Positions 24,647-60,050 of a DNA stretch of 64,000 bases are shown one piece after another (position 1 is the first letter of the stretch; each line of letters opens with the position of its first letter). This DNA is from Minisyncoccota bacterium. GTDB taxonomy: Bacteria; Patescibacteriota; Minisyncoccia; Phycocordibacterales; UBA5272. A model generated the notes under the pieces. The model saw nothing but the letters and a program-made list of their open reading frames with translations, ran no database searches and was not told where the DNA came from. The DNA lies in NCBI GenBank assembly GCA_031972295.1, contig DALYEZ010000002.1:9596-73595 (forward strand). The letters are read 5' to 3'. Made by a program: the position numbers and the translations under genes.

Positions 24647-26239
24647 ATGCGTGATCATTTCTCTTCATTCGAATATGAAGATTCTAAAAAGGTGCGAGAA
24701 AAGTACAGCACTGATGCGAGTATCTTTAAAGTGGAACCAGAAGGAGTGCTTTTCCCAAAGTCAGCCATTGATATTTCAAGAATTATAAAAACTCTGTTCG
24801 AACAGAATGAGCAAACATCACTTACGGTGCGTGCTGCTGGTACATGTATGTCAGGCGGACCACTCAACGAAGGTTTAATTGTTGATATTACCAAGTACAT
24901 GAATGCAGTTATTGGTTTGGACCTAAAGCATAAAACTATAACAGTGGAGAGTGGGGCAATGTACAAAGATGTTGAAGAAGCATCCGCGATGCACGGACTC
25001 ATGTTCCCGCCATATACATCATCAAAAGACGTTTGTGTGATTGGGGGAATGATTGGTAACAATGCATCAGGCGAACTTTCAGTACGTTATGGTGCAACTA
25101 TCGATTGGGTCCATAGCCTTGATGTTGTTTTAGCCGACGGAAATCTCTATACGTTCAAAGAACTCACTAAAGATGAGTGGTTTGAAAAACAAAAGCAAGA
25201 AACTTTTGAAGGTAAAATATACAGAAAAGTTGCTCACATGCTCGATGCCTGCCATTTTTTATTTGAGACGAATGTTCCAAAAGTTTCAAAGAACGCGGCT
25301 GGTTACCAGCTTTGGAAAATTTATAATCCAAAGACAAATACGTATAATCTTTCTCGGCTGTTTGTAGCCGCTCAAGGCACGCTTGGCATTATTGCTAATG
25401 CAACTTTGAAACTTACCGAGACGCCTCGGCATCGTCGTTTGGTTGTATGTCCTCTCACTGATCTTTCTGTGCTTGGTAACGTGCTCCACGCGCTTAAAGC
25501 AGCAAGTCCAGAAAGTATTGAAACATACGATACGCATACATATACACTTGCAAAAACATACCATCAAAAAGAAGCCGAGCTTGTGTCTTTTGTTTCTGAT
25601 CATGCGCTCCTGACGCTTTTTGTTCAAGTAGCTGAAGATACTGATGAGGGTACCCACACTAAACAAAATGAAATCGTAGAGATTCTCCGCTTACACAAGC
25701 TCACCCCATATATTCCAGAAAATCAAGAAACAGTTGAAGCTTTTTTTACTATTCGTCGAGCAAGTTTTCGAATGTTGATGGCTTTAAAAAGTTCACAAAG
25801 TCGTGTTGCACCCTGTATTGAAGACACTATCGTCCCTGTGGAACGTTACGGAGAATTTCTCACTCAACTCAAACCTATTTTAGATGATTACATACTCACC
25901 TATACCTATGCGGGGCACATTGGTGATGGCAGTATTCGTTTAATACCGTTGGCAGATTTTTCTGATCCAAAAACTCCAGAGATGCTCATGGAACTTTCAC
26001 ACCGTGTCTATGACCTTGTAATCGAGCTCGGTGGCTCAATTAGTGTCGACCACAACGACGGACTTCTCCGAACGCACTACTTGGAAAAACAATACGGTAA
26101 AGAATTAGTGGAAATATTTAAAGATATAAAAACTTTTTTTGATCCTCAGAATATTTTTAATCCAGGTAAGAAAGTACCGACTGAGAAACAGGGGACAGAG
26201 TTGTACGCAAAAAAGCATATACATAAGAAAAACGGATAG
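24647..26239 (+). CDS. FAD-linked oxidase (FAD_binding_4; GlcD/D-lactate dehydrogenase family)
   Basis: FAD-binding PCMP-like region (VRAAGTCMSGG...LIVDI) and a C-terminal DPQNIFNPGK typical of the family. Confidence 0.7.
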   Translation: MRDHFSSFEYEDSKKVREKYSTDASIFKVEPEGVLFPKSAIDISRIIKTLFEQNEQTSLTVRAAGTCMSGGPLNEGLIVDITKYMNAVIGLDLKHKTITVESGAMYKDVEEASAMHGLMFPPYTSSKDVCVIGGMIGNNASGELSVRYGATIDWVHSLDVVLADGNLYTFKELTKDEWFEKQKQETFEGKIYRKVAHMLDACHFLFETNVPKVSKNAAGYQLWKIYNPKTNTYNLSRLFVAAQGTLGIIANATLKLTETPRHRRLVVCPLTDLSVLGNVLHALKAASPESIETYDTHTYTLAKTYHQKEAELVSFVSDHALLTLFVQVAEDTDEGTHTKQNEIVEILRLHKLTPYIPENQETVEAFFTIRRASFRMLMALKSSQSRVAPCIEDTIVPVERYGEFLTQLKPILDDYILTYTYAGHIGDGSIRLIPLADFSDPKTPEMLMELSHRVYDLVIELGGSISVDHNDGLLRTHYLEKQYGKELVEIFKDIKTFFDPQNIFNPGKKVPTEKQGTELYAKKHIHKKNG

Positions 26240-26356
26240 GTACTTGACTTACTATGTATAAATGTGGTTTAAAGTTAAAAGCTCTTTAAACAAAGTTTAT
26301 TAGTTTGCCATAGCTTTAAGTGTTTATCTTTGAACTTTTAAAGCTATGGCAAACTA
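26239..26356 (+). promoter_or_regulatory. conserved upstream block (GTACTTGAC...TATAAATGTG) + 19-bp perfect-stem hairpin leader; a homologous copy sits at 30438..30554
   Basis: Direct comparison of the two copies; see findings. Confidence 0.5.
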
Positions 26357-26399
26357 GAGATCACAACGATCAAAGGCGACTAGCATAAGGAGCAACGCC

Positions 26400-26990
26400 A
26401 TGTCCAAAGACATGACCCTGCAACAAATCGACAAAGCAGTAGGAAACTACCGGGCAATGCTGGTGAAGCATACCGACAGCTTTCCAGCCGATGCTGTTCA
26501 ATCAGTACTTGGAGATCGCAACTTCGCTGCAGAGCAGTTCAGACTCTTCCGTGCGCGAGTCGAGGCTTGCTCAGGCATCATCATCCGCGACTTCACCGTT
26601 GACCTCAATCTCGTGGGCATGCGAGCAATCAGTGCGACTGGTTGCGTGAAGCATGTGAATGAGCACGTAGCGGAAACCATGCCCCGCGCAACTGTCTCTG
26701 AGGGCAAGTTGTATTTCTTCCAAATCGGTCGTGCCACACCGGCTGATAAAGTGGAAGCTGGGTACGCCAAACGCGGACTGATCCCCGTTGATCCACACAC
26801 GCTGTGTGCCTTCAATGCAGCCAACCAAGAATTTGCCGATACCCACCACAACGGCACCCAATGGAAAGATGAGAACGCCAACATCTGCCGTATGGGTTTC
26901 GGTAGGTGGAGCGGCATGCGCCGCGTGTACGTCGGCCGGAACGGCTATGGCTGGGACGACGGCTGGTGGTTCGCCGGTGTCAGCAAGTAA
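26400..26990 (+). CDS. orphan hypothetical protein, compositionally foreign (GC about 54% vs about 40% in flanks)
   Basis: Strong RBS AAGGAG 7 nt before the ATG. C/G-ending codon bias. Antisense ORFs 26498..26917 and 26571..26861 are GC artefacts. Followed by terminators at 27003-27027 and 27093-27122. Confidence 0.5.
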   Translation: MSKDMTLQQIDKAVGNYRAMLVKHTDSFPADAVQSVLGDRNFAAEQFRLFRARVEACSGIIIRDFTVDLNLVGMRAISATGCVKHVNEHVAETMPRATVSEGKLYFFQIGRATPADKVEAGYAKRGLIPVDPHTLCAFNAANQEFADTHHNGTQWKDENANICRMGFGRWSGMRRVYVGRNGYGWDDGWWFAGVSK

Positions 26991-27159
26991 GCTCTTTGGA
27001 CTGAGGCCTCAGGACTTTTGTTCCTTAGGCCTTTGTCAAAAAAAGTTGGAAGAATAGCTATAAACTTCCATACCTCCGCTGCGTCTTGCAACGGAGTTTT
27101 TATTTTTGTAGTCACACAGTACCCATCAAACCGTTACAAGAGGTATATACTATATTAAT

Positions 27160-30376: not shown

Positions 30377-30437
30377 AGCTTTCTCTCACTCAAATAAAAA
30401 TCTCTTACCAAAATAAGAGATTTTTATTTGAGTGAAT

Positions 30438-30554
30438 GTACTTTGACACATAATATAAATATGTGAGATAGTGCATAAAGTCAAGGTTCTTTATCAAAGT
30501 CTGTCACAGCCTTAAGTGTTTACAAATGTTGAATATTTAAAGTTGTGTCAGACT
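30438..30554 (+). promoter_or_regulatory. second copy of the conserved upstream block + covarying hairpin leader
   Basis: GTACTTTGACACATAATATAAATATGTG, then arms AGTCTGTCACAGCCTTAA / TTAAAGTTGTGTCAGACT around a GTGTTTA...TGAA loop. Confidence 0.5.
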
Positions 30555-30580
30555 AAATTTCTAAAACGATGGAGAAGACC

Positions 30581-31072
30581 ATGCTTAAGCGACATACAGA
30601 GCAAGATGTCATTACAATCGAACGTTCCGAACCTTTCAGCCCATCTACTTTTGAGGGCCGTGACTTGTCTATCGGTGAGCAAGACGAACGGTCGCTGGTA
30701 CTTTCTGAAGTGGATCGGAGAATGATCTTTCCTCTGGGAATAGTGAGCCTCGCTGAAAGGTCTGCTAGGGGGGAAGATGTGCTAAAACGGCTCAAATCCA
30801 AAAAGCACATTCGTCTAGACGCCAAGATTGGGGAGGTACTCTGGAAAGACTACGCGCTCAATAAGGAGAACAGTATCCTTGAGTGGTTACGTCTAAAGAA
30901 ATTGATCAGATTTCTCCCTTTTATGGGAACTGTCCTGGAGGATCTGAATGGTCGTCGATTGGTATTCTGTTTGTTTTGGTGGGAAGCGGAATGGTCTAGT
31001 TCCTTTCGGTTTCTGGAAGACCAATGGAGCACCTTACAGCCACCGGTCTGCTTATTTGTGTCCAAGAGCTAG
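30581..31072 (+). CDS. orphan hypothetical protein downstream of leader copy 2
   Basis: GGAG 6 nt upstream of ATG 30581 (alternative ATG at 30569). GC about 46%. Terminator AACTCCGATGCGTCGCATCGGAGTTTT at 31107-31135. Coding status less certain than for the 26400 ORF. Confidence 0.35.
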   Translation: MLKRHTEQDVITIERSEPFSPSTFEGRDLSIGEQDERSLVLSEVDRRMIFPLGIVSLAERSARGEDVLKRLKSKKHIRLDAKIGEVLWKDYALNKENSILEWLRLKKLIRFLPFMGTVLEDLNGRRLVFCLFWWEAEWSSSFRFLEDQWSTLQPPVCLFVSKS

Positions 31073-31224
31073 CATCTGAAAAGGCAGAATAAGCTTCTTG
31101 GTTTAAAACTCCGATGCGTCGCATCGGAGTTTTAATTGCCGTTTGGGCCTTCTTGTTGTATACTGACCCACATTAAACAAGCCTCTGTATGGGGGCTTTG
31201 TTTTTACAACACACACAATAATTT

Positions 31225-46800: not shown

Positions 46801-49800
46801 ATGCGTACTTCTCTAACGGTAGGCTTAGTTGCAGCTTTTGCACTCGTTGTTTCAACAACAGGCGCTCAAGCAGCACTAAATCTTCCAACAATGCAGTGCT
46901 CTTACTCATTCTCTACGAGCATGGGTCTAGGAGCACGAGGTGCATCAGTTATGGACCTTCAAAAGGTTCTTAACATGTACCCAGAGACCCGAGTTGCTGT
47001 AACAGGCGCCGGATCTGCTGGAATGGAAACTTCATACTACGGTCCTGCAACAATGGCCGCAGTAAAAAAGTTCCAAGCTATCAATTCAATCTCACCAGTA
47101 TCAGGTTACACAGGACCGCTCACACGAGCAGTTCTTAACCAGGTATGTTCAGGTACAGGAGTTAGTCTCCCAGTAGGTTGTACAACAACTTCTGGATTCA
47201 GTCCGGTAACTGGTGTTGCATGTAACACAGGTGTTTCTACTACTTTCCCAGCAGGCTGTACTTCAGCTCTAGGATTTAGTTCAATCACAGGTCTTGCATG
47301 TAATGGTGGTGTAATTTCACAAACTGGCCCAATCGTAGCTTCAATCGCTGCGACAAACCCAGCTTCTGGAGTTATCGTTGCAGGTCAGGCTACTGCTGAT
47401 CTTTTCCACTTTACACTTTCAGGTAACGGAGTTGTTAACTCTCTTACTTTGAAGCGTTCTGGAATTTCTGATCAGAATACACTTTCAAATGTGTATCTCT
47501 ATGAAGGAGCAGCTCGTCTTACAGACGGATACTCATTCAACAGTACTGGTGATATCACGATCAATAACCTCAACCTTACAGTAAATGGTTCAAAGACCCT
47601 TTCTGTACGAGCTGACGTTTACTCGTTGACTCCATCAGGACAGACTGTGGCAGTTTGGCTTACAGGTCTTACATCTGGCGCAACTGTTTCAAATGTAAAC
47701 CTTTCAGGAAACACATTTGCAGTAGCGAGTGGATCAACACTTGCAACAGCTAGTTTCTCAGCGAATACAGCGGCTGGTACTACTGTAAATGCGGGCACAA
47801 GTGCGTTCTCTTTCTTCTCAGCACCACTTCAAGTTAATACTCGAACAGTGTGGATGAAAGCGGCAAACTTCCGTATGATCGGTTCTGCTCCTACAGACGC
47901 AATCGCAAACATTAAAATGTTTGTTGATGGCGTTGACTCAGGTGCTACAGGAACTGTATGGGCATCAAATGGTACAAACTATGTATCATTTGACTTCATG
48001 GCAATGCCTAAGTCACTTACAACAGGTTCACATATCATCGAAGTTCGAGGTAATGTTGAAAAAGGTTCAAACCGAACAGTTCAATTTTCTATCCAGAATG
48101 CTTCAGACTTGATGCTTATGGATCCTCAGGTTGGTGTTAACATTGCGGTTACTGGAACTATTCCAAACAGTGGTCCAACAGTAACAATCAACACCGGTTC
48201 TCTTACAATCAACAATGACCCTGCTTTCCAAGCGATGACAAACATCACTGGAGGTGCGTCAAACGTTGCTATTGCTCGATACAAGCTTCATGCTTACGGT
48301 GAAGATGTAAAGATTCAGACTCTTACAGTTTCTCCTGTTCTCGGAGGCTCATTAGCTCCAACAGCGGGTACTCTTGACGATGTAACTCTTTACTTCAATG
48401 GATCACAGGTTGGAACACAGCAAGATCTTGCGTCTAGTACTCTTGCTTACACATTGGGTTCACAATTAATTGTTCCTGCAGGTGTAGATAGCTTCCTTGA
48501 AGTTCGAGCAAACATTCGAACATCAGGTGGTGCAAACTATACAGCTGGTACAATCCGTGCGGATCTAGTTGTTGGCTCATCTAATGCACAAGGTCAGAGC
48601 TCATTCAATACAGTAAGTACTCCAGCAGTAACAGGTAACACTCTTACTATTCAAACTGGACTCCTTAATGTTGCGAAGAACCCTGGTTATGCGAACCAAA
48701 GTGTGACTCCAAACACAGCAAATGTGAAAATTGGATCATTCGTGTTCCAGAACCAGAGTTCATCTGAAGGAGTTCGTGTAACATCTCTTTCAGTTGCTCT
48801 TGGATTTACAGGTTCACAGGTTGTTACAAACCTCGCTGCACTTCGAACATCTGAGACATCTGGATCAGGTTCAACACCTGTTCAGCCACAAGCTACGAAT
48901 ACTTTCTCTGTAGACTTTACTCTTGCACCAGGTGCAACAAAGATTATTGATATCTTTGCTGACACAGGTTCAATCACAACAGGTACTGTAATTGCGACTC
49001 TTACAACTACATCTATCGGTTCACAAAGTAATGTTACTCAGACAGTTTCTTCTATTGCTGGCCAGACAATTACAGTTGCTGCCGGTACTGTTACTAACCC
49101 TCCTACACTTGTAACTGCGTCTGCAACACAGGCACAGTACATTGCTGCTGGAAACGGTGGTGCAGCTGACGGAACAAAGGCTACATTCAACTTCGTATCA
49201 ACTGGTGGTGCGGCAACAATCACTGAACTCAAGTTCACTGTGACTGCTAGTCTCACTGCAACTGGTACAGTTTCTTCAATCAAGGTTGGAAACGTAACAG
49301 CTCCAGTAGTTGGTGGTGTTGCATACCTCACAGGTCTTAGTCTCCCTGTTTCAAACAGTGGATCAGGACTTACTCAGGATGTATTCATCTCTTACTCAGA
49401 AGTTGGTACAAATGGTATTGTCTCTGCGACAACATCATCAGTTGCTCTTACCGAAGTTAAATACACTTCAGGTGGAACAACAACAACATTCAATCCTTCA
49501 GTTTCGGCTCCTACTATGACACTCGTTGGTTCAAAACCAACACTTACTGTAAATACAGCAACTGTGTCTGGTTTGAATCTCGCAGCTGAAAACAAGATTG
49601 GTGAAGTAACTATTGCTGCTGATGCGAAGGGAAATGTTAAGATCAATGACATTCAGTTCGCAGTTGGTGCTTCAAACTTCACAACACTTCCAACCTTCAC
49701 ATTAGCTCGTATTGCCGATGGTAGTACAACTATTGCAGGTTCAAGTTGTGGACAGGGTACAGCCTCATCATCTTCTCAGACAATTTTCTGTGAATTTGGT

Positions 49801-52330: not shown

Positions 52331-55300
52331 ATGTCATATCATCAATCGTATAGAACCATTCAGGCAATGTTTCCGTTGAGGGTAGTGGTTTTAGTAGTAA
52401 TCTTTTCTCTAACTTTCTCACCACTCACTCCTCTTTTAGCCCAAGAGGTTTCAGATTCTACTAGTATCTCTGTAGGAGAAACAAGTTCACAAGTACCCCT
52501 TCCTGTTGATACCGAAATGGCCACGTCTCACGAGTCCCTGCAGGCTATTCTCCCAGAAATTAATCCAGATATAGAGCAAACTACAGATTCTGAAGTAGTT
52601 GTTGATGAATTATCTAAAGACGGTACTGAAAAAGAAACCACCTTGCAACCTTCTGCTGGTAATTCTGCGACTGCCTCACTTGCTTCGAATAGTGACTCAG
52701 GAAAAGTAATTAGGCCTAACATTGACCAATCGACAGGGGCTCTTATTTATGACTATCCAATGGAAACTCCAAATGGATTTAACCAGCAAAATCCGAATTT
52801 AAAACTCACATATAATTCTCAGGATGTAAAAAATGATTCAGTATTTGGTTACGGATGGAATGTTTCAATTCCATATATTGAAAGAGTTAATAAACATGGG
52901 GTCAATGACTTTTATTCTGGAGACGGTATTGATTTTGCTTCATCTGTGTTTGGTGAATTAGTTCAAAAAACCACTACAACATATGTGCCAAAATCAGCAT
53001 CTGATATTGTTTTGATTTCTTTTGTAAATAATGTGTGGACATACATAGATAAAGAGGGTACTACATACGTGTATGGATTAACTTCTGCTGGACGTCAGGA
53101 TGACCCCTCCAACTCAGCACATATCTACAAGTGGATGCTTACTTCAGTAACTGATTCGAATGGAAACAGTATTAGCTATACGTACACTAAGGATCAAGGA
53201 CAAATTTACCCTGACACAGTTAATTATGGGGGGATATATCAGATTGCTTTTGTAAAGGTTGTACGTGGAGAAACCATTGAATCGTATAAGCCAGGCTTTT
53301 TAGTTGCAACTACAGAGATAATTAATGAAATACAGTTAAAGGTCTCTGGAGTATTGAAAAAAAAATATGCTTTTACATATACGCAGGGAGACAATGCGAG
53401 TCGATCAATTTTAAACTCAGCGCAAATCTCCGTATATGATTCTTCAAATAATTTAGCAGTGCAGCCCACTACAACCTTTAGTTACTCAATTCGTTCGACA
53501 CCAAACTGGAACACCTCATCCAATATCACGTTTCCTCCAGGTACGAATCTCCTCAATGGGCATTCCATAGCAGTTGATTTTAATGGTGATGGATATACTG
53601 ATATTCTTACTTCTTTCGCAGATCCGAATTCAATTACCACTCAGGTAGCATATATAAATAATGGTGATGGAACATGGGCAACATCAACCGCATATACACC
53701 ACCGGTAATTTTTTATTACGACAGCGGGGCTGGTTTGAGTAAAGGCTACACTACACTTGATCTTAATGGAGATCAGCTCCCAGAGCTTTTTAGGTCGGTG
53801 ATGGAATGTAATGGTGTGGTTTGTGGGAATAGTTCAGTTATTTATATCAACACAGGAAGTGGTTGGGTATCAAGTACAGATACTATCCCAGTAGGTCTTC
53901 TTTATCTTGGGAGCCCAATAGCAGACATGGCTGATTTTAATGGTGACGGTTTAGTAGATATTTATTCTTCGGCAAGAAATTTCAATGGAAATAATTTTCC
54001 TAGAAAAGTATATCTTAATAATGGTGATGGTACCTGGCTTGATGACACCGCAGCGTGGACATTTCCTTACAGTTCAGGTTCAAGGTCTATCTATACCGAT
54101 CTTAATGGGGATGGGATAAGTGATATTATCTTTGATAATTGGTATTACACAGGGGGTGCTTGTAATTGCACAACATATAACCCAAATAATAGGGCATATA
54201 TTGGAGATGGTAAGGGGGCATATGTGGCCTCAATAAGCTATATCTCACCATACTCATATAGTTCATATCCAGCGGGTCAACCGAGTCCTGGCTATGACTG
54301 GGGTAACAGAGTATTTGATATAAATAATGATGGACTTGTCGATCTTGTGTATGGAACTAACCCTTCAGGAGTTGGAACTGTAAGAAGTTCTACTTATGTT
54401 AATACAAGTAATATTTGGTCCTTAGATATCCCATCGTTGGTATTACCGTCATCTATTTTGAAATTTAGTGATAACGGAAATTTTACAATTGGAAATCCAT
54501 TAGATATGGACGCTGATGGCATTCAGGAAATTTATTATCAAACAACTATTTTTAAAAACCAGAGCGCAAAGCATACCGATCTTCTTTCTACTATTACTAT
54601 GCCAAGTGGAGGTACGGTGGCTATTGCATATCAATCAAGTGGTAAATATAAAGATTTAAATGGAAACCTTTTGAACGCACAACTTCCATTTGCTGTGCAA
54701 ACAGTGCGGTCAATAACAACTACAGATCCAGTCGCTAGTGTTGTAGGCACTTCAAGCTACACCTATTCGGGCGGTGTATATTACTATGCCACGCCTTCTG
54801 ATCGAAAGTTTGCTGGTTTTGAAAAAGTATCAGAATCTAGACCAGACGGAAGTGTTGTCGTAAACTACTATCATCAAGGCAACGGAACAAATAACAGTAA
54901 TTATGAATACAATGATAGTGTGGGAAAAATTGGTTATGTATATCGCACCGATATTGTAAATAGTTCTGGAACTATCCAAGCTCGATCAACGACTAAGTAT
55001 AATTCAATCAATACAGTAACGGGGGCATATTATGTATATCCGACTCAAACAGTTGATGAAATGAACGGAAAGAATACTGCTACCGCGTACATCTATGACA
55101 CAACAACAGGGAATCTTTCGAGTAGTCTTGAATATGGAAAGGTTGTGGTGACCGACCCACTTACTTTCACCGATGCTGGTTTGGATATTAAGTCGACTGA
55201 GTATACTTATGCCACAGATGCATCGTCAACAACTTACAAAGTTTCTAGTAAAGCAACATATGATCAGGTGGGTACCAAGGTAAACGAGACTAAATATTAT

Positions 55301-58300
55301 TACGATATGTTAGCGTTTGGTTCATTGGCGGTCGGCAATAATACCAAAGTCTCACAACTGAAGACGGGAAGTACGTTTATTGATAGTGTCCAAAAAACGT
55401 ACAACAGTTATGGGCACATTACCTCAAGTACTGATGCTCGAAATAAAACAACGCAATTGGGATATGATACAAACAATTTGTATATCGCAACCGTTACTAA
55501 TCCTTTATTGCAAGTGATGAGGTATGTATATGAGTACAATACAGGTAAACCGACGGAGGTTATTGATCAAAATGGATTCACATACCGAACTTCATACGAT
55601 GGTCTTGGGAGAGTTCTGAGTGAAACAATACCTGACGCGTATGGCACGAGTGTTACAAAAACCCTCTATACGTACACAGACATTCCAAATGCGGTATCCG
55701 TACAAAAAACAGATTATCTCAATGATCATAATGGAGTCGAAACATATCAGTATTTCGATGGCCTTAATCGGCTTGTGCAAGAAAGAAAAGAGGCTGAAGT
55801 GGCAGGGACGTTTAATGTTCGGGATATAAGATATAACAATATTGCTTTAGTGGAAAGTGAATCATTGCCGTATGTTGCCACAGGGGCAGGAAAAACAAGT
55901 CCAACAAAAAATGCAGCACTCTACACTACGAACACATATGATCCATTGCAACGAGTTACTGCTATTACAAATAGTATTGGTGTTACGAGTAATATTTATA
56001 ATGATTGGAAGACCACCGTCACAGATCCGAATGGCAAAGTAAAAAAGTATTATAAAGATGCTTACAATAATTTGGTAAAAGTTGATGAAGTAAATGGTAG
56101 TGCAACTTATTCGACAAATTACACTTGGAATCTAAATAATAAACTCACAAATATCACTGATGCACTTGGAAATGTTCGTAACTTCACATACGACGGACTC
56201 GGACAACGTCTGACTGCCGAAGATTTGCACAATCCCGCGGACACATCTTTTGGTACTTGGACGTACGTTTATGATCTAGCGGGTAATCTTACTCAAACAC
56301 ATAATCCAGAAAATAAAATCGTACATTATACATACGATGATATTAATCGCGTAAAAACAGAAAATTATATTAATGAGACAGGAATAGAAATAGCATACGA
56401 TTACGATACGTGTCCTAATGGAGTAGGAAAACTTTGTACCGTGACACAATCAACATCAAAAGTTGTGTTTGAATATACCCCATCGGGATTAGTAAGTAAG
56501 GAAAACAGAGAAATTCATAAATCTCTTTTCTCAACCTCATTCTTGTATGACAGACAGGGAAACGTTGTACAGAGCGTGAGTCCGGATCAGGATACATTCT
56601 ATCGTAACTATAACAACGCAGGACTTCTTGAAAAAATACAATATGGTCAAGCGGGAATGAAGTCAATGATGCGTACCATTGTTGATGATTTAGATTACTC
56701 ACCGGTAGGTCAAATTACTTACCAGAAAAACGGTAATAGTACAGAGACTGTGAATACCTATGATTCTAGTAAGTTGTATCGTCTTACAAACAAAATTACT
56801 ACAACTTTGAATAACTCTCCAAGTGGACATAAAAGAGTAAACGCACTGGTAGTAGGAGGTGGTGGTGGTGTAAGTGGTGGCACTGGCGGTGGCGGTGCAG
56901 GTGGATATCAAGCAAGTACTACCTTAGCAGTACTTGCTCAAGCTTATCCTATTACAGTAGGGGCAGGCGGATCTGGATTTAATAATGGTGGGAACTCGAT
57001 CTTCAGCACTCTTACTGCCTTAGGTGGCGGGGCAGCTTCCGACGGCTTCAGTTCTGGTCAAAATGGAGGTTCTGGTGGCGGTGGTTACGGACAGTTTGTT
57101 CCGCAAGGTAATGGTGGTGCTGGAAATGTAGGGCAAGGAAATAGTGGTGGAAATGGATTTGGTATGGGGAGCGCAACTACAGCAGGAGGCGGTGGCGGTG
57201 CATCAACTGCAGGAACTAATGCTTCTTCAGGACAAGGAGGAAATGGGGGAAATGGTGTAGTTAATTCTATTTCAGGATCTTCTGTTGTTTATGCAGGAGG
57301 TGGGGCAGGCAGGGCTATCATAGGTATAAACGGAATTCCTGGAACAGGTGGTGGAGGAGCTGTTGGAAGTAACGGTATAGACGGATTGGGAGGCGGTGGC
57401 GGTGGACAAGTCGCAGGAGTTGATACTAAGGGTGGATCTGGTGTTGTTATTATTGCATACCGTACAGATGGAAGTGATGGGGTACTAAATACTTCTACAG
57501 GAGGTGTAAAGACAACGTCTGGTGCGTACACTATACATACCTTTACAGGTAATGGAATTTTTACAGTAAATCCTCCATCAAATGGCAGTGCTCGTATCCA
57601 AGATATCAGTTACACCTACGACAATAATGGCAACATTACACAGATAGTAGACGCTTCAGATACAGCAGGAGCGAAAACGGTTACGTACACATATGATGAC
57701 CTTAATAGAATGCTTTCAGCTACGGCTACTAATGTTGCTTCTGGACAAAGTGGATATACGTACAACTACACGTATGATGCGATTGGAAATATCACAAATG
57801 GCCCTGTGGGAGCGTATGTTTACAACGGTATAAGTGCCTCTAATTGGGCAAATCCTCATGCTGCAACTTCAATTGCTGGAACTATTCTTACGTATGATAA
57901 AAGTGGCAACATGCTTTCTGATGAGGTGCTTACAAATACGTGGAACTACAAGCAGCAACTTGTGCAAGTAGAGAAAGATAAAAATACTTTTGAGTACACC
58001 TATGATCATGAAGGAAATCGTCTGCGAGTAATGAGTGATGGAGAAGATACATATTATCCAAATAAGTTCTACAGCGTTGACGTATCTGATAAAAGAACAA
58101 AAAATGTTTTTGCGGGCGACCAACTAGTTGCAACTATTGAAACGAGCACTTCGGCTAATAACATATTTTATAACCACACCGACCACCTTGGTTCTGTGAA
58201 TGTGGTGACTGATGCATCTGGTACTCAAACAAATCTTCTCGACTACTTCCCATACGGATCAAAAAGAATTGAAAGTGGTACTAACGTTGGGGAGAGAGAA

Positions 58301-59083
58301 TTCATCGGACAAATATTTGATGATGAAAGTGGTTTAAGTTATCTGAATGCACGGTATTACGATGGGAATCGAGGACGGTTTATTAGTCAGGATCCATTGC
58401 ATTGGGACATGTCCCAGGAGTATCTCGTAGATCCGCAGCAGATGAATAGTTACAGCTATGGAAGAGGTAATCCACTCAAATATATTGACCCTAATGGAAA
58501 GAAAGTAGAGTTAGTTGTTCGTCCCGTATTCACAAAATATGATGGGCATCTTTTCTACCATATTACCCCTGAGAATCCCGATCAAATTAATGTAAATGGA
58601 GTTCCTGCTGGAACTAAAGAATTTAGTATAGGGGGTTACAATAGGGGGGGATTTCTTGGTATTGGCAATAAATTAACACCTGAGATTGGTTACGAGGGAG
58701 GACAAGCTTCAAACACAGATCTACCTTATCTTCTTGGTCAGAAAGAAGCAACAGCAAGAATTACCATCATGTCTCCAGAAGGGCAATCTGATACTGATTT
58801 TATAAATGCTTTAGGCACATCTGCGAATAATGTTAATAAAGAAAGCTATTTCACTTTCGGTCAAAGATTAAAATTTGGAAACGCAAATTCTAACAATTTT
58901 GCTCATGAAATTGGGTCTCAGGTTGGAGTGGGGGATCAAGTTACAGAATTTAGCAGTCTTATGACAAATAAAATTTATATTCCAGGTGGTGATAGAGGTT
59001 TACCGACAAACTCATTGCGTCAGATGATTAGACAAGGAATTGACCAAACAGGTAAGCAAATCAGTAAATTGTTCAAAAACTAA
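52331..59083 (+). CDS. giant secreted polymorphic toxin: SpvB-like domain + FG-GAP/VCBS-type repeats + RHS/YD repeats + RHS repeat-associated core + variable C-terminal domain
   Basis: Signal peptide. SpvB block NPNLKLTYNSQDVKNDSVFGYGWNVSIPYIERV...DFYSGDGIDFASSVFGELV. Six DxNGDG-type repeats (DFNGDGYTDIL, DLNGDQLPELF, DFNGDGLVDIY, DLNGDGISDII, DINNDGLVDLV, DMDADGIQEIY). More than 15 YD repeats (YTYDxxGN). RHS core ...NARYYDGNRGRFISQDPL...DPNGK, followed by an approximately 195-aa non-repetitive C-terminus. Confidence 0.85.
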   Translation: MSYHQSYRTIQAMFPLRVVVLVVIFSLTFSPLTPLLAQEVSDSTSISVGETSSQVPLPVDTEMATSHESLQAILPEINPDIEQTTDSEVVVDELSKDGTEKETTLQPSAGNSATASLASNSDSGKVIRPNIDQSTGALIYDYPMETPNGFNQQNPNLKLTYNSQDVKNDSVFGYGWNVSIPYIERVNKHGVNDFYSGDGIDFASSVFGELVQKTTTTYVPKSASDIVLISFVNNVWTYIDKEGTTYVYGLTSAGRQDDPSNSAHIYKWMLTSVTDSNGNSISYTYTKDQGQIYPDTVNYGGIYQIAFVKVVRGETIESYKPGFLVATTEIINEIQLKVSGVLKKKYAFTYTQGDNASRSILNSAQISVYDSSNNLAVQPTTTFSYSIRSTPNWNTSSNITFPPGTNLLNGHSIAVDFNGDGYTDILTSFADPNSITTQVAYINNGDGTWATSTAYTPPVIFYYDSGAGLSKGYTTLDLNGDQLPELFRSVMECNGVVCGNSSVIYINTGSGWVSSTDTIPVGLLYLGSPIADMADFNGDGLVDIYSSARNFNGNNFPRKVYLNNGDGTWLDDTAAWTFPYSSGSRSIYTDLNGDGISDIIFDNWYYTGGACNCTTYNPNNRAYIGDGKGAYVASISYISPYSYSSYPAGQPSPGYDWGNRVFDINNDGLVDLVYGTNPSGVGTVRSSTYVNTSNIWSLDIPSLVLPSSILKFSDNGNFTIGNPLDMDADGIQEIYYQTTIFKNQSAKHTDLLSTITMPSGGTVAIAYQSSGKYKDLNGNLLNAQLPFAVQTVRSITTTDPVASVVGTSSYTYSGGVYYYATPSDRKFAGFEKVSESRPDGSVVVNYYHQGNGTNNSNYEYNDSVGKIGYVYRTDIVNSSGTIQARSTTKYNSINTVTGAYYVYPTQTVDEMNGKNTATAYIYDTTTGNLSSSLEYGKVVVTDPLTFTDAGLDIKSTEYTYATDASSTTYKVSSKATYDQVGTKVNETKYYYDMLAFGSLAVGNNTKVSQLKTGSTFIDSVQKTYNSYGHITSSTDARNKTTQLGYDTNNLYIATVTNPLLQVMRYVYEYNTGKPTEVIDQNGFTYRTSYDGLGRVLSETIPDAYGTSVTKTLYTYTDIPNAVSVQKTDYLNDHNGVETYQYFDGLNRLVQERKEAEVAGTFNVRDIRYNNIALVESESLPYVATGAGKTSPTKNAALYTTNTYDPLQRVTAITNSIGVTSNIYNDWKTTVTDPNGKVKKYYKDAYNNLVKVDEVNGSATYSTNYTWNLNNKLTNITDALGNVRNFTYDGLGQRLTAEDLHNPADTSFGTWTYVYDLAGNLTQTHNPENKIVHYTYDDINRVKTENYINETGIEIAYDYDTCPNGVGKLCTVTQSTSKVVFEYTPSGLVSKENREIHKSLFSTSFLYDRQGNVVQSVSPDQDTFYRNYNNAGLLEKIQYGQAGMKSMMRTIVDDLDYSPVGQITYQKNGNSTETVNTYDSSKLYRLTNKITTTLNNSPSGHKRVNALVVGGGGGVSGGTGGGGAGGYQASTTLAVLAQAYPITVGAGGSGFNNGGNSIFSTLTALGGGAASDGFSSGQNGGSGGGGYGQFVPQGNGGAGNVGQGNSGGNGFGMGSATTAGGGGGASTAGTNASSGQGGNGGNGVVNSISGSSVVYAGGGAGRAIIGINGIPGTGGGGAVGSNGIDGLGGGGGGQVAGVDTKGGSGVVIIAYRTDGSDGVLNTSTGGVKTTSGAYTIHTFTGNGIFTVNPPSNGSARIQDISYTYDNNGNITQIVDASDTAGAKTVTYTYDDLNRMLSATATNVASGQSGYTYNYTYDAIGNITNGPVGAYVYNGISASNWANPHAATSIAGTILTYDKSGNMLSDEVLTNTWNYKQQLVQVEKDKNTFEYTYDHEGNRLRVMSDGEDTYYPNKFYSVDVSDKRTKNVFAGDQLVATIETSTSANNIFYNHTDHLGSVNVVTDASGTQTNLLDYFPYGSKRIESGTNVGEREFIGQIFDDESGLSYLNARYYDGNRGRFISQDPLHWDMSQEYLVDPQQMNSYSYGRGNPLKYIDPNGKKVELVVRPVFTKYDGHLFYHITPENPDQINVNGVPAGTKEFSIGGYNRGGFLGIGNKLTPEIGYEGGQASNTDLPYLLGQKEATARITIMSPEGQSDTDFINALGTSANNVNKESYFTFGQRLKFGNANSNNFAHEIGSQVGVGDQVTEFSSLMTNKIYIPGGDRGLPTNSLRQMIRQGIDQTGKQISKLFKN

Positions 59084-59382: not shown

Positions 59383-59594
59383 AGTCGGCGCTTTTCTTGA
59401 GTTAAAAACAAGCGGGATCTTTCTCTTTGGAATTAGTTACAAGAAAATTTCTTTCAGAAAATAAGGAATCTCGCCCTACTGGCGCTGTACACCTTTTCTA
59501 TTTTCTCAAAGCAGAGCTTCTCTAAAATAAAGAAAAGGTTTTTCGATTCCCCCACGAAAATGCTCCCAGCATTTTCTCACTCCACAAAAATACA

Positions 59595-59625
59595 AAAAAC
59601 TCTCATCGCGAGAGTTTTTTGTATT
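59595..59625 (-). terminator. terminator for tmRNA (hairpin AAAAAACTCTCATCGCGAGAGTTTTTT)
   Basis: Read on the minus strand: hairpin then U-run immediately 3' of the tmRNA end. Confidence 0.6.
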
Positions 59626-59629
59626 TTTG

Positions 59630-60050
59630 TGGAGATGGGGGGAATCGAACCCCCGTGCATAGAAATCTAGGATGTGTAGGTCTACAATGCGTAGCGGCAT
59701 TCTTGCCTTCTCGAAGGAAGGCTAACAATGAGACGTGGTGAACGACGCAAGAATCGTCTCATCGGTCACTGCGTATTTAAATCTGAAAGTGCAGTGAGGC
59801 TTTCAGATCGAGTGTACGATGTATAATCGTTACCTTTCTACGATACACGAGCGTATAAAGGAACGCTTGGCAGAAGTCTGCAGAGCAGAGTCTTACGCAA
59901 GAGCAAAAGCACGAGCCTCACTTGCGTAAGGTGATGCGATTGCTGTGTAGCTTTTAGCTGCACTACTTTTTTGTATACTGAGTACGAGGAAATATACTTC
60001 TCGGCACTGCGTACACACAAGATAAACCATGTCGATGCCAGGTCATCCCC
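59630..60050 (-). ncRNA. ssrA: tmRNA (SsrA), standard one-piece
   Basis: The minus-strand 5' end GGGGATGACCTGGCATCGACATGG matches the tmRNA consensus GGGGnUGAnnnnGGnUUCGACnnGG. The 3' end ACGGGGGTTCGATTCCCCCCATCTCC-A is a tRNA-like T arm + acceptor with the G3:U pair. It sits immediately downstream of smpB on the same strand. Putative tag frame ends ...EARAFALA-TAA. Confidence 0.8.

Follow-up and report, generated by a model that had tools for sequence, protein, structure and literature searches.

A candidate structured 5′ leader RNA with a long, covarying basal helix upstream of variable-protein genes of diversity-generating retroelements in Patescibacteria

Introduction

Processing by RNase III is known to expose the ribosome-binding site in the 5′ leader of Escherichia coli adhE, and processing stems are known from phage lambda N and from T7 early mRNA. 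Here, we compare these and other described systems with two hairpins in a 64,000-nucleotide stretch of DNA from a Minisyncoccota bacterium (phylum Patescibacteriota; GenBank assembly GCA_031972295.1, contig DALYEZ010000002.1, positions 9,596 to 73,595), which we refer to as the window. The two hairpins lie upstream of open reading frames ORF1 and ORF2, respectively, and ORF1 encodes a variable protein of a diversity-generating retroelement (DGR). From the letters of the window, the original prediction had proposed that the hairpins are related, that their pairing is kept while their arms differ, and that they most likely form an RNA stem-loop in the 5′ leader.

To our knowledge, DGR variable proteins are the sole targeted protein hypermutation system known in prokaryotes, and the control of their expression is essentially uncharted. 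They are especially common in Patescibacteria. In the DGR of Bordetella phage BPP-1, the homing elements stand at the 3′ end of the variable repeat (VR) in mtd, and comprise the initiation of mutagenic homing (IMH) sequence and a downstream hairpin/cruciform. Orphan structured RNAs that adjoin reverse transcriptase (RT) genes have also been described, as the RT-1 to RT-19 motifs (Weinberg et al. 2017, PMC5737381).

Results

The two hairpins lie on the forward strand of the window, at 26301–26356 (copy 1) and 30498–30554 (copy 2). The perfect 19-bp inverted repeat originally reported for copy 1 is present, with arms TAGTTTGCCATAGCTTTAA (26301–26319) and TTAAAGCTATGGCAAACTA (26338–26356) paired at every position, and a repeat search lengthens it to 24 nt, of which 92% are complementary, around an apical loop of 8 nt. 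The stem, which we call P1, thus comprises 24 bp in copy 1 and contains a CATAGC/GCTATG box (26309–26314 / 26343–26348). It lies 44 nt upstream of the start codon and ∼530 nt 5′ of the VR; the 43 nt that had been placed between the repeat and the ribosome-binding site already include its AAGGAG motif (26387–26392). Our recount of the copy 2 stem agrees with the earlier one, at 15 Watson–Crick pairs, one G.U pair and two mismatches (U.U and C.A), and its box reads CACAGC/GUUGUG (30505–30510 / 30542–30547). Relative to copy 1, copy 2 carries two double compensatory changes, both from T-A to C-G.

A covariance model of the stem (R1) was run over the entire window with filters off. Only two sites matched, copy 1 with 61.9 bits (E-value ∼1e-13) and copy 2 with 53.6 bits (∼1e-11), while the runners-up, at ≤27 bits, were ordinary terminators at 59579–59635 (after the tmRNA gene) and 30384–30437 (secF). 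Because the model picks exactly these two sites in 64 kb, the resemblance between the copies is not due to chance. On the minus strand, copy 1 scored 52.2 bits and copy 2 scored 28.8 bits, against 53.6 bits for copy 2 on the plus strand. The homology between the copies spans the promoter, a CUCUUU-type block after the predicted transcription start, the hairpin, the spacer between the Shine–Dalgarno (SD) sequence and the ATG, and the terminators. The original prediction had suggested such a search, and had reasoned that a lack of further copies, together with a hairpin upstream of the transcription start, would speak for a DNA palindrome; beyond the two window copies, the leaders of related genes carry additional ones, and the stem lies 3′ of the predicted start.

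We read the region upstream of the ORF1 family gene in 20 distinct loci (given L numbers below). Fifteen of these leaders have a stem at the same position as in the window, and L004, whose upstream end is missing, shows the 3′ arm alone. The arm sequences are diverse (for example GUUUGCCAUAGCUUUAA, AGUCUGUCACAGCCUUAA, UAAUAGUCACAGCGAUAU, ACAGUCACAGCGG, UUCACCACAGCCAAAG and UCUACCCCAGCUU), and all stems pair without gaps around an almost invariant 6-bp box, CAYAGC/GCURUG. In an alignment of the 14 complete stems across 58 columns (A5), 92.9% of P1 cells are standard pairs and 18 of the 25 pairs have changed on both sides, with 45 such cells. None of 500 shuffles matched P1 in its pairing or double-change measures, and slid controls, in which the partner was shifted by 1–3 columns, gave 30–45% paired cells (38.7% for the two-column misregister control). 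These figures bear out, over a wider set of sequences, that it is the pairing rather than the arm sequence that is conserved.

The length of P1 is also maintained, at ∼20–30 stacked pairs in all 15 leaders whatever the sequence, and four lineages with a short loop retain a nearly perfect P1 of 24 bp. Two wobble pairs are fixed, a G.U shared by 13 of the 14 sequences and a U.G shared by 11, and together with the box these may reflect sequence-specific recognition of P1.

The non-Watson–Crick cells of P1 discriminate between strands. G.U pairs outnumber A.C by 45 to 4 (13 to 4 when counted by columns), and L013 has five consecutive G.U/U.G pairs in the middle of its stem. In duplex DNA the same cells would fail to pair, and an antisense RNA would have A.C mismatches in their place, so the G.U excess points to a sense-strand RNA. 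The arms stand 8 to ∼200 nt apart in different leaders, with box-to-box distances of 39, 42, 46, 51, 61, 84, 91, 98 and 194–205 nt, and a box spacing that ranges from 39 to 205 nt rules out an operator of fixed geometry. In both window copies and in the family loci the element always sits between the promoter and the SD, and no target-site duplication was seen at it by eye. Given the G.U bias, the variable spacing, the lack of dispersed copies and a promoter ∼20 nt upstream in every locus, the hairpin is very probably a cis-acting, sense-strand RNA element of the 5′ leader, in keeping with the stem-loop first proposed.

Several specific candidates were rejected. A palindromic operator lacks its fixed half-site spacing. 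Miniature inverted-repeat transposable elements (MITEs) do not fit two copies in 64 kb at equivalent positions, and in the 22 related loci we found no copies of the element past one per family gene. An integron attC site was rejected on position, the hairpin being 5′ of the gene and 3′ of its own promoter, and on sequence, as the arm ends GTTTGCC/GGCAAAC misfit RYYYAAC/GTTRRRY cores. An intrinsic terminator or attenuator was rejected because the stems are A/U-rich (GC 0.31–0.33), are followed by AGAGAUC or AAAUUUC, and were not listed by a terminator scan.

The conserved block upstream of the hairpins is homologous in both copies, as had been noted, and reads as an ordinary promoter of the σ70 type, near consensus and with an extended −10. 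In copy 1 (26244–26273) it comprises a −35 TTGACT (26244–26249), an 18-nt spacer, a TGn element (TGG, 26265–26267) and a −10 TTTAAA (26268–26273), with a predicted start at ∼26280. Copy 2 has TTGACA-N18-(TGA)-GATAGT at 30443–30472, which scored 10 of 12 matches with TG in a promoter scan and has a predicted start at ∼30479. A near-consensus −35 is present in all loci read and the full TTGACw-N17/18-TGn-hexamer arrangement in nearly all, L036 being without the TG; the distance from promoter to stem is ∼20 nt in every family locus. A second promoter within the loop (TTGAAy-N18) was rejected, its −10 hexamers being poor and unconserved. Downstream of the stem, the spacer from SD to start codon (26393–26402 and 30575–30583) reads GAUGACGCC-AUG, or GCAACGCC-AUG in the window clade, and is kept at the DNA level in all family loci, though the proteins are only ∼40% identical. 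An upstream open reading frame in the conserved spacer GATGACGCCATG was rejected, as its stop codon varies among loci.

ORF1 (26400–26990, plus strand) encodes 196 amino acids. Neither it nor ORF2 matched Pfam or PHROGs, and both had been described as orphan genes. For ORF2 this description holds, since database searches return only ORF2 itself, whereas ORF1 has 12 homologues in a single-sequence search and at least 195 in a profile search, all of them unnamed proteins from Patescibacteria metagenome-assembled genomes or metagenomes. A protein-based scan of IMG/VR found nothing. The last ∼35 residues of the family are hypervariable on a constant scaffold, C..F..W...R.V.V....W.DGWWF.AGV.K. In L005, a template repeat (TR) ∼420 nt downstream repeats the 3′ end of the gene with differences at adenines, and is followed by a minus-strand Avd gene and an RT gene. 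This order, with the gene for the variable protein first and then TR, minus-strand avd and RT, is found in six loci (L005, L009, L010, L013, L015/L016 and L018). The position of avd on the strand opposite to the variable protein, TR and RT (L005 2035–4489, L009 3001–5433, and also L010, L013, L015/L016 and L018) is unusual, such that a TR transcript extended at its 3′ end would run antisense to avd.

The VR of L009 differs from its own TR at 17 of 28 TR-adenine positions and at 0 of 71 other positions. The putative VR of ORF1 (∼26886–26987), compared with the L009 TR from this other genome, differs at 19 of 28 adenine positions and at 9 of 71 others. As the differences are concentrated at adenines, we conclude that the ORF1 VR has been diversified by a related template. 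An AlphaFold2 (AF2) model of ORF1 has a pLDDT of 95.3, and its top Foldseek matches are C-type lectin domains, weak in score, with C-type-lectin, TvpA and Mtd folds among the matches. From the TR, Avd and RT of its homologues, the hypervariable C-terminus, the adenine signature and the fold model, we conclude that ORF1 is a DGR variable protein with a predicted C-type-lectin-like fold. No RT, Avd or TR was found in the 64-kb window by tblastn, blastn or repeat search, so ORF1 appears to be a remote or orphaned DGR target. The family gene is found in differing genomic neighbourhoods; in the window, the neighbours of the cassettes are FAD oxidase, SIMPL, SecD/F and EF-G.

Folding of the leaders predicts that P1 lies in the loop of an outer helix, P0, that takes up the SD. 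In copy 1, the 5′ strand of P0, GCUCUUUA (26281–26288), stands at the predicted 5′ end of the transcript and is complementary to the SD region UAAGGAGC (26386–26393), which forms the 3′ strand in the minimum free energy (MFE) fold. In copy 2, the MFE fold and a duplex prediction pair GGUUCUUUAUC (30485–30495) with 30566–30578, which covers the SD, GGAG (30571–30574). The MFE folds of copy 1, copy 2, L006, L020 and L009 all combine P0 with P1, and an anti-SD/SD helix is present in the folds of the nearest relatives. The fold of copy 1 also has a small linker hairpin, GAUC-ACAAC-GAUC (26359–26371); at the equivalent place, the folds of L020, L009 and L006 have small linker hairpins whose sequence differs from that of copy 1.

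SD accessibility was computed for the two window copies. The probability that the SD is unpaired is 0.004 in the full copy 1 leader and 0.59 without its 5′ part, with corresponding values of 0.013 and 0.34 for copy 2, and none of 100 shuffled 5′ segments reached such low accessibility. The anti-SD block is conserved as GCUCUUU or GUUCUUU. Compensatory change in P0 is clear in one case, a U-A pair in L019 that was read from the leader; the best predicted duplex of L019 avoids the SD. On these predicted folds, we put it at somewhat above an even chance that the 5′-terminal block masks the SD. Family members without P1 still hold a GUUCUUU block, which is close to the SD. This suggests that the SD-masking helix is the older part and that P1 (with or without the apical domain described below) was inserted in its loop as a module.

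In four loci (L009, L019, L021 and L022; 59–63% protein identity), P1 encloses 170–200 nt rather than a small loop. The enclosed region of this long form comprises a helix P2 (CUCAAAAC/GUUUUGAG), a helix P5 (CAURC/GYAUG), two hairpins (P3 and P4), invariant junctions and lineage-specific extra hairpins. The stems of P3 and P4 have been almost wholly rewritten between the four sequences, while the junction strands CACAURCACGC, UGCUxCGCUCG and CUGCGCRAGGCAUGUUCAUAC are invariant. RNAalifold recovered the architecture of this inner domain; with P5 added, 96.3% of cells are paired and 17 pairs are double-changed, across four sequences only. The long-form fold of L009 has a z-score of −6.6. Between P1 and P2, an optional hairpin, GGCGAGGGG-ACC-CCUUGCC or GGUGAGGGG-ACC-CCUCACC, is present in L009 (2778–2800) and L019 (∼285–305), and L021 and L022 have other insertions, on the 3′ side of the long-form RNA. 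As these optional insertions differ, the inner domain seems to tolerate lineage-specific expansion segments. A small peptide encoded inside the inner domain was rejected, since the short ATG frames vary among the four loci, and all 12 matches from a scan of IMG/VR with an inner-domain 16-mer were unrelated coding sequence.

Partial deletions are also found, L038 retaining the 5′ part up to the 5′ strand of P2 and L003 retaining the P1a region only, and short and long forms are interleaved on a rough neighbour-joining tree of the proteins. These observations are most simply explained if the clade started from the long form and lost its interior several times, with P1 retained each time under a small cap. 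The window copies appear to have lost the inner domain and to have kept P1 as a bare 24-bp double-stranded RNA (dsRNA) stem. Because P1 was kept at each deletion, it seems to have a role of its own.

Searches for known RNA families gave no assignment. With Rfam 15 at the gathering threshold, the window returned only rRNA, tmRNA and tRNAs, and E-value scans of the leader returned only eukaryotic miRNA-precursor hairpin models, at ≤30 bits against thresholds of ≥45. The long form (L009 and eight loci) likewise gave no Rfam match on the element, and the suggestion that it is not a described family is upheld by this lack of matches in both the window and its relatives. A search of the literature on leader RNAs or riboswitches of DGR targets and on structured RNAs of Patescibacteria found nothing relevant. 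A riboswitch was rejected for the window copies, which have just an 8-nt apical loop on a continuous helix and no ligand pocket; the long form in the relatives does have conserved junctions and covarying helices. A riboswitch that switches P1 was also rejected, since P1 is 20–30 bp long and very stable (the whole copy 1 leader folds at −46.8 kcal/mol) and no alternative pairing of its strands was found. A DGR IMH or target hairpin was rejected because such elements directly follow the VR, whereas this one lies 5′ of the gene. In L022, sequence downstream of the family gene (1834–1920) resembles the ribosomal protein L10 leader below the gathering threshold, at 36.5 bits against 44, and in L004 the L10/L12 genes come after the family gene.

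ORF2 (30581–31072, plus strand) is without a detectable homologue. It probably starts at the ATG at 30581, giving the deposited protein of 163 amino acids, with an alternative ATG at 30569. That ORF2 is a diverged member of the ORF1 family was rejected, as BLASTP, hhalign (probability 0.2%), tblastn and a six-frame HMM search were all negative. A single-sequence AF2 model of ORF2 has a pLDDT of 33 and is unusable, and its 3′ end has no VR-like sequence. The hints that link the two proteins are a collinear NGTQWKD/MGTVLED stretch, a common -VSK end, and the homologous leader and terminator; there is nothing more. The terminator-like hairpin after ORF1 (27073–27105, CUCCG...CGGAG with a U run) is homologous to the terminator after ORF2 (31103–31137, a perfect 16-bp hairpin with a U run), with the shared pattern CUCCG.UGCGUC..GCA.CGGAGUUUU, while the coding regions between leader and terminator are not detectably related. 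The cassettes are therefore paralogous at their two ends, with the body of ORF2 either replaced or extremely diverged.

Three other features of the window were observed. Right after secF and a few bases before the copy 2 promoter stands a terminator-like, A/U-rich hairpin (30386–30435), with 22 perfect base pairs and a 6-nt loop. A long, perfect, symmetric hairpin with A and U runs on either side (59579–59635) abuts the 3′ end of the tmRNA gene (59627–60050, minus strand) and resembles a bidirectional terminator. Finally, there is an ORF of 2250 amino acids at 52331–59083 and, further upstream (47163–47312), a 78-nt tandem coding repeat of 71% identity, which suggests large repetitive surface-type proteins.

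Discussion

The account that we favour, held tentatively and at a little under even confidence, is that the hairpins are the transcribed basal helix P1 of a leader RNA before Patescibacteria DGR variable-protein genes, and that this RNA acts by SD masking and P1 cleavage. Of its parts, the structure with its conservation, its strand and place in the leader, and the identity of the gene family are supported by the computations above, while SD masking is an in silico prediction. A strong extended −10 promoter would start transcription ∼20 nt before P1, and the first 8–11 nt of the transcript (GCUCUUUA or GGUUCUUUAUC) would pair with the SD as P0, masking the ribosome-binding site, with P1 located inside the P0 loop. 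As a dsRNA of at least 20 bp with its box and two conserved G.U pairs, P1 may be the entry site for a dsRNA-specific factor, for which RNase III would be the first candidate. Cleavage of P1 would detach the 5′ anti-SD from the body of the mRNA and so unmask the SD, or it would set mRNA stability. Naming RNase III is a doubtful step, taken by analogy, and we propose it because P1 keeps ∼20 bp or more in every lineage that has it; all 15 leaders with P1 have the length of an RNase III substrate (about two helical turns, ∼20 bp or more of mostly uninterrupted dsRNA).

A number of points weigh against this account. Four more distant family members (L010, L011, L012 and L017) have no P1, which is therefore dispensable to the gene family. 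The alignment A5 was registered on the stem itself, which favours structure, and its sequences are related, so that the shuffle counts are not probabilities. For P0, the duplex is no better than in shuffles in L005, L013, L036, L003 and L019, and its covariation is thin because the SD can hardly vary. The start sites and any cleavage of P1 are predictions, and a scan for rnc signature motifs found none in the 64-kb window, which says little on the rest of the genome. A function of the inner domain could also redefine the role of P1.

Among the alternatives, the first is that P1 is never cleaved and serves as a passive structural module, a rigid insert that holds the anti-SD near the SD, with the paired 5′ end giving protection from 5′-end-dependent decay; as an outcome, the variable-protein mRNA would be translated at a constitutively low level and be highly stable. 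The shared P0-and-P1 architecture of the MFE folds, the almost complete pairing of the SD in the ensemble and the predicted pairing of the 5′ end are all compatible with this. We nonetheless find it unlikely, both as a structure and in the outcome it implies, as it leaves the upkeep of ∼20–30 bp, of the invariant box and of the conserved G.U pairs unexplained, and family members without P1 place the anti-SD beside the SD and cope.

Two further readings start from the inner domain. In the first, the full-length form (P1 with the ∼170-nt P2–P5 region, ∼230 nt in all) would be a new large structured RNA class dedicated to Patescibacteria DGR variable-protein genes, serving as a sensor (riboswitch-like or a ribozyme) or as a platform for a retroelement protein. 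We regard this as speculative and improbable; if true, expression of a hypermutated receptor gene would be tied to a signal, and the window hairpins would be natural minimal derivatives that reveal the indispensable part. In the second, which seems to us less probable again, the function would lie in the ∼170-nt apical domain (a riboswitch-like or protein-binding sensor, or a ribozyme), and the window hairpins would be its decaying or functionless vestiges. The strong conservation of the inner domain, with its invariant junction strands and covarying helices, and the known deletion intermediates agree with this second reading. Against it, P1 remains 24 bp and nearly perfect in the four short-loop lineages, the window copies differ by compensatory changes, which imply selection on P1 after the loss of the domain or independent of it, and the distant L005, L013, L015 and L036 retain P1 with quite different apical content.

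A function specific to the retroelement, in which the leader would mark or regulate the target gene through Avd or RT binding, coupling to mutagenic homing or coordination with the TR RNA, appears improbable to a greater degree than these. The leader has so far been found only before the DGR target family and one neighbouring cassette, and the family gene is first in the cassette with TR, avd and RT in six relative loci. Known homing, however, needs elements 3′ of the VR (the IMH and the downstream hairpin) and not the 5′ end of the gene; moreover, the leader is kept at loci without an adjacent DGR (the window, L036, L003 and L004) and before ORF2 despite its lack of a VR-like end, while the DGR-linked L010 has no P1.

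We give very little credence to a DNA-level element (a palindromic operator, a cruciform, MITE terminal inverted repeats or an attC-like recombination site): the near-perfect repeat does score on the minus strand in copy 1, internal-deletion derivatives that keep their ends look like MITE formation, and the family gene occurs in varied neighbourhoods, but half-sites 8 to ∼200 nt apart are unfit for a dimeric operator, neither duplex DNA nor the opposite strand could pair the cells behind the 45:4 bias or the five successive G.U pairs, the place between promoter and SD is constant with no dispersed copies or target-site duplication, and the hairpin lies 5′ of the gene within a promoter-driven leader with no GTTRRRY core and no integrase.

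A covarying leader RNA before one large target family offers a testable handle on the control of DGR variable-protein expression, and adds a sizeable structured RNA candidate for a phylum in which hardly any non-coding RNA has been characterised. In effect, nature has also supplied a deletion series, from the long form through partly deleted ones to the minimal form, and it shows selection to be most persistent on the basal dsRNA stem.

Set beside described systems, the leader belongs to a familiar general kind, that of structured cis-acting 5′ leaders, and forms a new RNA family there; the window copies are a minimal derivative of this family. The leader shares with those of adhE, lambda N and T7 a long, near-perfect dsRNA stem and a ribosome-binding site that is (here by prediction) occluded by upstream sequence, from which cleavage would free the mRNA body. 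It differs from them in having no sequence relationship, in its host, a Patescibacterium, in the conserved 6-bp box and fixed G.U pairs of the window stem, and in the large domain that caps the stem of relatives; cleavage here is proposed only. In the RNase III-cut processing stems and intervening sequences of rRNA, long helices that border a structured RNA or stand in for it, a 20–30-bp basal helix encloses, as here, a structured domain that some close relatives have and others lack; the present element, unlike these, lies in an mRNA leader and gives no sign of excision. The predicted pairing of a U-rich or CUCUUU anti-SD with AAGGAG resembles SD-sequestering leaders, such as ribosomal-protein leaders, RNA thermometers and riboswitch platforms, but here the two strands are at least 100 nt apart and bridged by a very stable hairpin, with no temperature-labile design evident and no ligand pocket in the window copies. 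The mtd hairpin of BPP-1 is likewise tied to a DGR target gene, yet the BPP-1 elements lie 3′ of the VR, have short GC-rich stems and act at the level of DNA or cDNA integration, whereas the leader element is 5′ of the gene, 20–30 bp long and A/U-rich, with RNA-type wobble pairing. Finally, the leader resembles the RT motifs (PMC5737381) in that it is non-coding, conserved and covarying and is tied to the neighbourhood of a retroelement; those motifs, which adjoin RT genes, are covered by Rfam models, none of which matches the leader element.

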